A stretch of 64,000 nucleotides of DNA, taken from Escherichia coli. Lineage in GTDB: Bacteria > Pseudomonadota > Gammaproteobacteria > Enterobacterales > Enterobacteriaceae. Below are positions 43,969-45,181 of this stretch, in pieces. Under the pieces are notes generated by a model. That model was given only the letters and a program-made list of their open reading frames with translations, searched no databases and was not told where the DNA came from. The first letter of the stretch is position 1, and each line of letters opens with the position of its first letter. Location: assembly GCF_044324785.1 (NCBI RefSeq), contig NZ_CP172127.1, one strand, 5' to 3'. The position numbers and the translations under genes were made by a program.

Positions 43969-43985
43969 ATCCTGGATAAAAAAAT

Positions 43986-44017
43986 CCCCGCGACACGGCA
44001 TGTCGCGGGGAAAAAAA
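43986..44017 (-). terminator. Rho-independent terminator of bhsA
   Basis: ccccgcgaca / tgtcgcgggg 10-bp stem; on the minus strand followed by a T-run. Confidence 0.8.
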
Positions 44018-44050
44018 TCAGCAGTAGCAGGCATTAATGAGGGTTAATGC

Positions 44051-44308
44051 TTATTTATAAATTACTGCTGTTCCATGGAGGGTATTCGGACCGGTTACAG
44101 AAGTAATACGGAAAGATTTTGCGCCCATCTCATCCGCTTTTTGCGCCAGCTGCTCTTCCAGCGATCCCAGATTTGTCCCCGCGTTAGCACTGATAGTACC
44201 GACTTTTTGTTGGCCTTCTGGCGTTGACTGAACTTCGACAGCCGCAAAGCTGGCAAATGACATTGAGCTTAAAATCGCCGCAGCGATGAGGGTTTTTACG
44301 TTTTTCAT
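44051..44308 (-). CDS. bhsA: Multiple stress resistance outer-membrane protein BhsA (YcfR/ComC)
   Basis: 85 aa with signal peptide MKNVKTLIAAAILSSMSFASFA. Confidence 0.92.
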   Translation of the reverse strand: MKNVKTLIAAAILSSMSFASFAAVEVQSTPEGQQKVGTISANAGTNLGSLEEQLAQKADEMGAKSFRITSVTGPNTLHGTAVIYK

Positions 44309-44376
44309 AATAGTGGCCTTATGCAGATGAATGACGTCGCAAGCAATTACTTAACGATCGATAACTAAATGATAGA

Positions 44377-44392
44377 TGTGATCTGGATCACA
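44377..44392. promoter_or_regulatory. Near-consensus CRP-type palindrome TGTGA-N6-TCACA between bhsA and comR
   Basis: TGTGATCTGGATCACA, perfect 16-bp palindrome; ~70 bp upstream of the bhsA ATG. Confidence 0.5.
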
Positions 44393-44548
44393 TACAAGAT
44401 ATTTTTTATAACAATCATTAATTAATTTAAAAATCTTTAAATTTCAGTTAAATAGAAAGCAATTATTTTTATGGTTTGTGGACTGGTGAACGGAGGTGAT
44501 TATTTTTATAATAAACTTTCATTCACAGTCACCAGGTACAATGGCATC

Positions 44549-45181
44549 ATGGCAACTGACTCAACACAATGTGTAAAAAAAAGCCGTGGCCGCCCAAAAG
44601 TGTTCGACAGGGATGCCGCGCTTGATAAGGCCATGAAATTGTTCTGGCAGCACGGTTATGAAGCGACTTCTCTTGCGGACCTCGTCGAAGCGACCGGAGC
44701 CAAAGCGCCCACGCTATACGCGGAATTTACCAACAAAGAGGGGTTATTCCGCGCCGTACTCGACCGCTATATCGATCGTTTTGCCGCGAAGCATGAAGCA
44801 CAGCTGTTTTGTGAAGAGAAAAGCGTGGAGTCTGCGCTGGCTGACTATTTTGCTGCCATCGCCAACTGCTTTACCAGCAAAGACACCCCGGCTGGCTGCT
44901 TTATGATCAACAACTGCACCACCCTCTCCCCGGATTCCGGAGATATCGCCAATACGCTGAAATCACGCCATGCGATGCAAGAGCGCACTTTGCAGCAGTT
45001 TTTATGTCAACGACAAGCGCGCGGGGAAATCCCGACCCACTGTGACGTGACGCATCTGGCAGAATTCCTTAATTGTATTATTCAGGGGATGTCGATCAGC
45101 GCACGCGAAGGTGCATCGCTGGAAAAACTGATGCAGATTGCCCGAACGACTTTGCGTTTATGGCCGGAACTGCTGAAATAA
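44549..45181 (+). CDS. comR: TetR-family copper-responsive repressor ComR (YcfQ)
   Basis: Internal Met MATDSTQCVKKSRGRPKVFDRDAALDKAMKLFWQHGYEATSLADL... gives 210 aa; TetR HTH. Confidence 0.9.
   Translation: MATDSTQCVKKSRGRPKVFDRDAALDKAMKLFWQHGYEATSLADLVEATGAKAPTLYAEFTNKEGLFRAVLDRYIDRFAAKHEAQLFCEEKSVESALADYFAAIANCFTSKDTPAGCFMINNCTTLSPDSGDIANTLKSRHAMQERTLQQFLCQRQARGEIPTHCDVTHLAEFLNCIIQGMSISAREGASLEKLMQIARTTLRLWPELLK

Follow-up and report, generated by a model that had tools for sequence, protein, structure and literature searches.

The 16-bp element TGTGATCTGGATCACA, located in the spacer between the divergent genes bhsA and comR, is very probably a high-affinity cAMP-CRP site of the bhsA promoter that represses from within the promoter spacer, with ComR acting through separate boxes. 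Published ChIP-seq occupancy and a published cAMP dose-response show in vivo binding of CRP here and a decrease of bhsA expression with cAMP. We infer the start site, the mechanism of occlusion, and the assignment of the boxes to ComR. The CRP site itself is already known from a ChIP-seq table, and the CRP-ComR-bhsA loop from EcoCyc and RegulonDB. What the present analysis adds is modest and concerns the architecture: bhsA would have a conserved promoter whose spacer is filled by the CRP core.

In the proposed mechanism, a CRP dimer would occupy the core-promoter spacer with its centre at ~-22.5 and block RNA polymerase, and bhsA would be turned down at high cAMP, that is, under poor carbon supply. 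ComR, a TetR-family repressor released by copper, would most likely act via two separate CGATCG-centred palindromes, one at the start site and the other at ~-52.5.

The CRP site and its flanking genes

The core of the CRP-cAMP binding site lies at 44377-44392 (no strand assigned; centre 44384.5) of the window, by which the whole stretch of 64,000 nucleotides analysed is meant, exactly where the original prediction had placed it. It corresponds to positions 1168989-1169004 of the K-12 chromosome (NC_000913.3), and the sequence in K-12 MG1655 is identical. The 22-bp CRP site, AGATGTGATCTGGATCACATAC, extends over 44374-44395. The core had been described as differing from the ideal CRP core TGTGATCTAGATCACA at a single central position and as lying ~70 bp upstream of bhsA and ~160 bp upstream of comR, and these statements hold: there is one central mismatch, the bhsA ATG is 68 bp from the left edge of the site, and the comR ATG is 156 bp from the right edge. 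Its description as a perfect 16-bp palindrome was wrong, since the reverse complement is TGTGATCCAGATCACA and the element is self-complementary at 14 of its 16 positions, with perfectly complementary 7-bp arms and an asymmetric central TG.

The site is flanked by bhsA (also ycfR or comC; 44051-44308, minus strand, ATG at 44308), encoding a DUF1471 outer-membrane stress protein of 85 aa, and by comR (ycfQ; 44549-45181, plus strand), which is divergent from bhsA and encodes its TetR-family repressor of 210 aa. Both gene identities, originally assigned from the sequence, were confirmed in matching E. coli genomes by their RefSeq annotation; of 5426 E. coli genomes, 5419 contain the bhsA/comR region. 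At its 3′ end, bhsA is overlapped by the small RNA BhsB (b4832; window 43979-44078, coordinates mapped from the K-12 annotation), which extends into a GC-rich hairpin between bhsA and ldtC (~43985-44015).

The expectation that matches of this quality are uncommon was borne out, the match being far above chance by the shuffled window as well as by a CRP matrix. In a shuffled window, the expected number of matches to the CRP core with two or fewer mismatches is 0.03, and by our own arithmetic, 16-mers with at most one mismatch from the CRP consensus would be expected ~0.1 times per whole E. coli genome. The matrix was symmetrised and derived from the 106 other CRP ChIP-seq sites of Haycocks et al. 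2015. TGTGATCTGGATCACA reaches 21.2 of 21.65 bits on this matrix and outscores all 106 training sites; no other 16-mer of the 64-kb window exceeds 12.3 bits. Elsewhere in the window, TTTGACGGCTATCACG (55595-55610; 12.1 bits) is the same 16-mer as that of the ptsG CRP peak of Haycocks et al. 2015, and it is located 135-150 bp upstream of a minus-strand ORF of 477 aa (54027-55460) that is consistent with ptsG in size and position.

Published occupancy and response to cAMP

The suggested check of CRP ChIP data returned a peak over this exact 16-mer, in a strain other than the window's own. Haycocks et al. 2015 (PMC4287617) reported a CRP ChIP-seq peak at ycfQ/bhsA in ETEC H10407, centred at 1274886 and 4-fold above threshold, under which the predicted site is exactly TGTGATCTGGATCACA; no other paper quoting the 16-mer was found in the literature searched. 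Table 1 of Haycocks et al. 2015 also contains CRP ChIP-seq peaks at DUF1471 paralogues of bhsA, namely ybiJ, yahN/yahO, and yjfY/rpsF, and the Klebsiella DUF1471 gene KP1_4563 has been reported to be CRP-regulated. CRP control may be a trait of the whole DUF1471 family.

The EcoCyc- and RegulonDB-based study PMC6121374 assigns bhsA to an incoherent feed-forward loop of type 2, with CRP repressing both ComR and bhsA, and ComR repressing bhsA as well; the loop class is common to bhsA, osmY, gadA/B/C/X, nirB, and yiaJ. In addition, a RegulonDB-based table gives one promoter at which sites for CRP and for ComR are combined. The supplement of PMC6121374 holds a cAMP dose-response array obtained in a cyaA tolC mutant (15 min, doses up to 10 mM), in which the log2 values of bhsA relative to no cAMP are -0.24, -0.42, -0.96, -1.09, -1.66, -1.74, and -1.94 at rising doses, with bhsA mRNA ~3.8-fold lower at the top dose. 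The effect of cAMP on bhsA could be partly indirect. The original expectation of a functional CRP site is supported by the ChIP-seq occupancy, by this dose-dependent response of bhsA to cAMP, and by the conservation of the site in 77 spacers.

Conservation of the site among enterobacteria

A ComR-based scan with one genome per species yielded 80 loci, 72 of which carry the divergent bhsA-comR pair with a spacer of 238-250 bp. In each of the 72, the best CRP match is found at the same offset, with the bhsA ATG 69-77 bp away, and scores 12.6-21.2 bits; in Klebsiella and Salmonella enterica, the CRP site is placed in the same way. The combined set comprised spacers from 77 enterobacterial taxa, and some column counts were made on 73 spacers. 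Across the spacers, TGTGATC and TCAC show no variation or almost none, and the four bases at the centre are free to vary, as reflected in the information per column over the 77 spacers, which is 0.5-0.8 bits at the central four positions compared to 1.8-2.0 bits in the arms. The column profile correlates with the information content of the CRP matrix (Pearson r = 0.71). The right arm of the site is GATCACA in E. coli and mostly GGTCACA or CATCACA elsewhere, with a variable last A.

Four species have comR without bhsA, and in these the CRP site is absent (best scores 2.3-6.2 bits). Here comR is located directly downstream of ldtC, and the two boxes that flank the CRP site in other species are absent too, with the comR-proximal TTTTTATAAT promoter block being kept. 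The absence of the CRP site and the retention of TTTTTATAAT in the bhsA-less species indicate that the site belongs to bhsA, not to comR. The four species (L058, L063, L072, and L073; ~2100-2500) are two Enterobacter sp., Pseudescherichia vulneris, and Escherichia sp. ESNIH1, and in two of them the TTTTTATAAT comR promoter overlaps a box-like ATAATGATCGTT. The converse case, bhsA without comR, was sought as a means of telling a CRP site from a ComR operator, and the Klebsiella and Salmonella genomes examined all retain comR. E. fergusonii has been reported to be without ycfQ. In E. coli CP163868.1 (L097, ~1570-2500), a recent frameshift near the 5′ end of comR leaves the gene uncalled, with no change in the spacer or in the CRP site.

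Probable layout of the bhsA promoter

A conserved hexamer that reads TATCAT on the bhsA strand (44369-44374, minus strand) is the putative -10 element of bhsA; it is TATCAT in 34 taxa, TATGAT in 22, and TATTAT in 3, with the fourth base alone varying. The putative -35 element (44392-44398, minus strand) is TTGTAT in E. coli, running from 44397 down to 44392 with a 17-bp spacer, and TTGACG in most other genera, running from 44398 down to 44393 with an 18-bp spacer and abutting the CRP core. The conserved order on the bhsA strand would be the -35 element, the 16-bp CRP core, 2 bp, and the -10 element (TATNAT). In both Citrobacter and Salmonella, a promoter scanner called TTGACG-18-TATGAT (10/12), which lies on the bhsA strand and contains the CRP core in its spacer; it was the sole call for Citrobacter and the top-ranking one for Salmonella. 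The E. coli counterpart, TTGTAT-17-TATCAT, is too weak for the scanner and was not called in the window; a distal TTCACC-17-AATAAT was called instead, which is also given, as a prediction, by Shimada 2014.

Transcription of bhsA would start at 44361-44363 (~44362, minus strand; ~1169019 in K-12), ~7 nt past the -10 element; the Cappable-seq supplements contain no entry for a mapped bhsA start near the expected coordinates. Counted only from the putative -10 element and start, the centre of the CRP site would lie near -22.5 of the bhsA promoter, and the position of the CRP core in the promoter spacer would explain the repression by CRP here. Within 44392-44421, Escherichia has a weaker -35 element than the other genera (TTGTAT vs TTGACG) and a flanking box 2 that lacks both CG steps, and its CRP right arm is nearer to the consensus (GATCACA vs GGTCACA). 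These three linked differences may represent a lineage-specific retuning of the promoter.

Palindromes flanking the CRP site

Box 1, TTAACGATCGATAA, is located at 44351-44364 (no strand assigned; centre 44357.5), over the presumed start of bhsA, and is a candidate ComR operator. It forms the core of a longer imperfect palindrome (44344-44371), the arms of which are 82% complementary, and 13 of its bases are invariant or nearly invariant in 73 spacers. Box 2, a candidate second ComR operator, is located at 44408-44421 (likewise unstranded; centre 44414.5) and reads ATAACAATCATTAA in E. coli and ATAACGATCGTTAA in the consensus of the other genera; the inner 12 bp of this consensus form a perfect palindrome, and the box is degenerate in Escherichia. 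The two boxes share a AACGATCG core. The distance to the CRP centre is 27 bp for box 1 in 65 of the 77 taxa and 30 bp for box 2 in 71 of the 77. In the 430 kb of fetched loci, there are 168 matches to the box motif, of which 142 lie within 260 bp upstream of comR, nearly all of them at two fixed offsets. On the bhsA promoter as laid out above, the boxes would be positioned at ~+4.5 and ~-52.5.

According to reviews, ComR binds the bhsA promoter region in vitro, and bhsA has no other known specific regulator, which makes ComR the simplest candidate for binding the boxes. The boxes appear to be better candidates for ComR operators than the CRP palindrome. No description of the two palindromes was found in the literature searched, in which the binding of ComR was covered by reviews. 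The two CGATCG palindromes provide concrete, testable candidates for the operators of ComR.

Three GATC (Dam) sites occur within ~35 bp, two in the CRP core (44379-44382 and 44386-44389) and one in box 1 (44356-44359); the left GATC of the CRP core and that of box 1 are invariant across genera. It is possible that protein-protected, unmethylated GATC sites exist here. Control by Dam methylation was considered, and no link between GATC methylation and bhsA was found in the literature searched.

Alternative explanations

As the original prediction had already considered, the palindrome could instead be the operator of ComR, a TetR-family protein that would repress bhsA there and be released by copper. 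The position of the palindrome in the bhsA promoter agrees with this, and a review citing Mermod 2012 locates ComR binding '60 bp upstream' with respect to the gene, a distance intermediate between those of box 1 (43-56 bp) and the CRP site (69-84 bp) that decides for neither. However, CRP holds this exact sequence in vivo, and the conservation is CRP-like, being confined to TGTGA, TCACA, and two neighbouring bases, with a variable centre; as a full palindrome, the CRP 16-mer is not conserved, and box 1 is near-invariant. Moreover, a ComR operator at the CRP site would leave the conserved pair of AACGATCG-core palindromes without a binding factor. We regard this alternative as unsupported and very improbable, and the flanking palindromes TTAACGATCGATAA and ATAACGATCGTTAA would fit a TetR-family operator better. 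A distinctly unlikely explanation is that the site, which lies in a spacer common to bhsA and comR, mainly regulates comR and that bhsA changes only indirectly via ComR levels. The loop derived from EcoCyc and RegulonDB does have CRP acting on comR, but repression of comR by CRP would raise bhsA with cAMP, and bhsA falls. The probable comR core promoter, TGGTGA-17 bp-TATAAT (44484-44512, plus strand), has a TATAAT that is invariant in 73 spacers (44507-44512), and the CRP centre is ~134 bp upstream of the start that this TATAAT implies; the bhsA-less species kept this promoter and lost the site.

CRP could also be a class II activator of bhsA, centred at -41.5 with a start near window 44343, and -41.5 is, with -92.5, the most frequent position of the CRP sites identified by ChIP-seq (Haycocks 2015). 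Nevertheless, cAMP lowers bhsA mRNA, and no conserved -10-like hexamer is present at the required 44350-44355, the TATNAT abutting the site instead; class II activation was rejected on these two grounds and seems most unlikely. A chance match without function, in favour of which nothing was found, is refuted by the ChIP-seq occupancy and the conservation, as well as by the match statistics, and its probability is next to negligible. The preferred explanation is the repression of bhsA by CRP from within the promoter spacer, with ComR probably acting through the two boxes.

Comparison with known systems

Operators of the TetR family, such as tetO and QacR IR1, are palindromes in the promoter of the gene divergent from the repressor gene, an arrangement that boxes 1 and 2 fit. 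Unlike these operators, the CRP 16-mer is not kept as a TetR-type palindrome, and only the bases contacted by CRP are fixed.

Assemblies of the operator-CRP-operator type are formed by NagC at nagE-nagB and by CytR with CRP. Like them, the bhsA CRP site is bracketed by two candidate repressor sites with fixed spacing (27 and 30 bp), whereas any interaction or cooperation of ComR with CRP at bhsA is purely hypothetical. It is conceivable, and in our estimate rather unlikely, that CRP and ComR repress jointly, as one complex, in which CRP would bend the spacer and bring two ComR-bound operators together; DNA looping is not a known trait of the TetR family. If such a complex did form, bhsA would be fully silenced only at high cAMP without copper or stress, and a TetR-family protein and CRP would together constitute a carbon-and-metal logic gate.

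The likeness to canonical cAMP-CRP sites (22-bp consensus AAATGTGATCTAGATCACATTT) consists of the TGTGA-N6-TCACA arrangement with 15 of the 16 core bases, and, as with those sites, the bhsA site is occupied by CRP in vivo and the adjacent gene is cAMP-responsive. The differences from the consensus are a central G in place of A and the flanks AGA/TAC in place of AAA/TTT. In addition, the bhsA site would be positioned within the core promoter, compared to -41.5 or -61.5 for canonical sites.

One class of CRP-repressed promoters has the CRP site overlapping the core promoter, as in osmY, where CRP is positioned near -12.5. The bhsA promoter resembles this class in the negative action of CRP on a stress gene and in a site that would overlap RNA polymerase contacts. 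Unlike in that class, the 16-bp CRP core of bhsA, at its presumed position, would fill nearly the whole 18-bp spacer.
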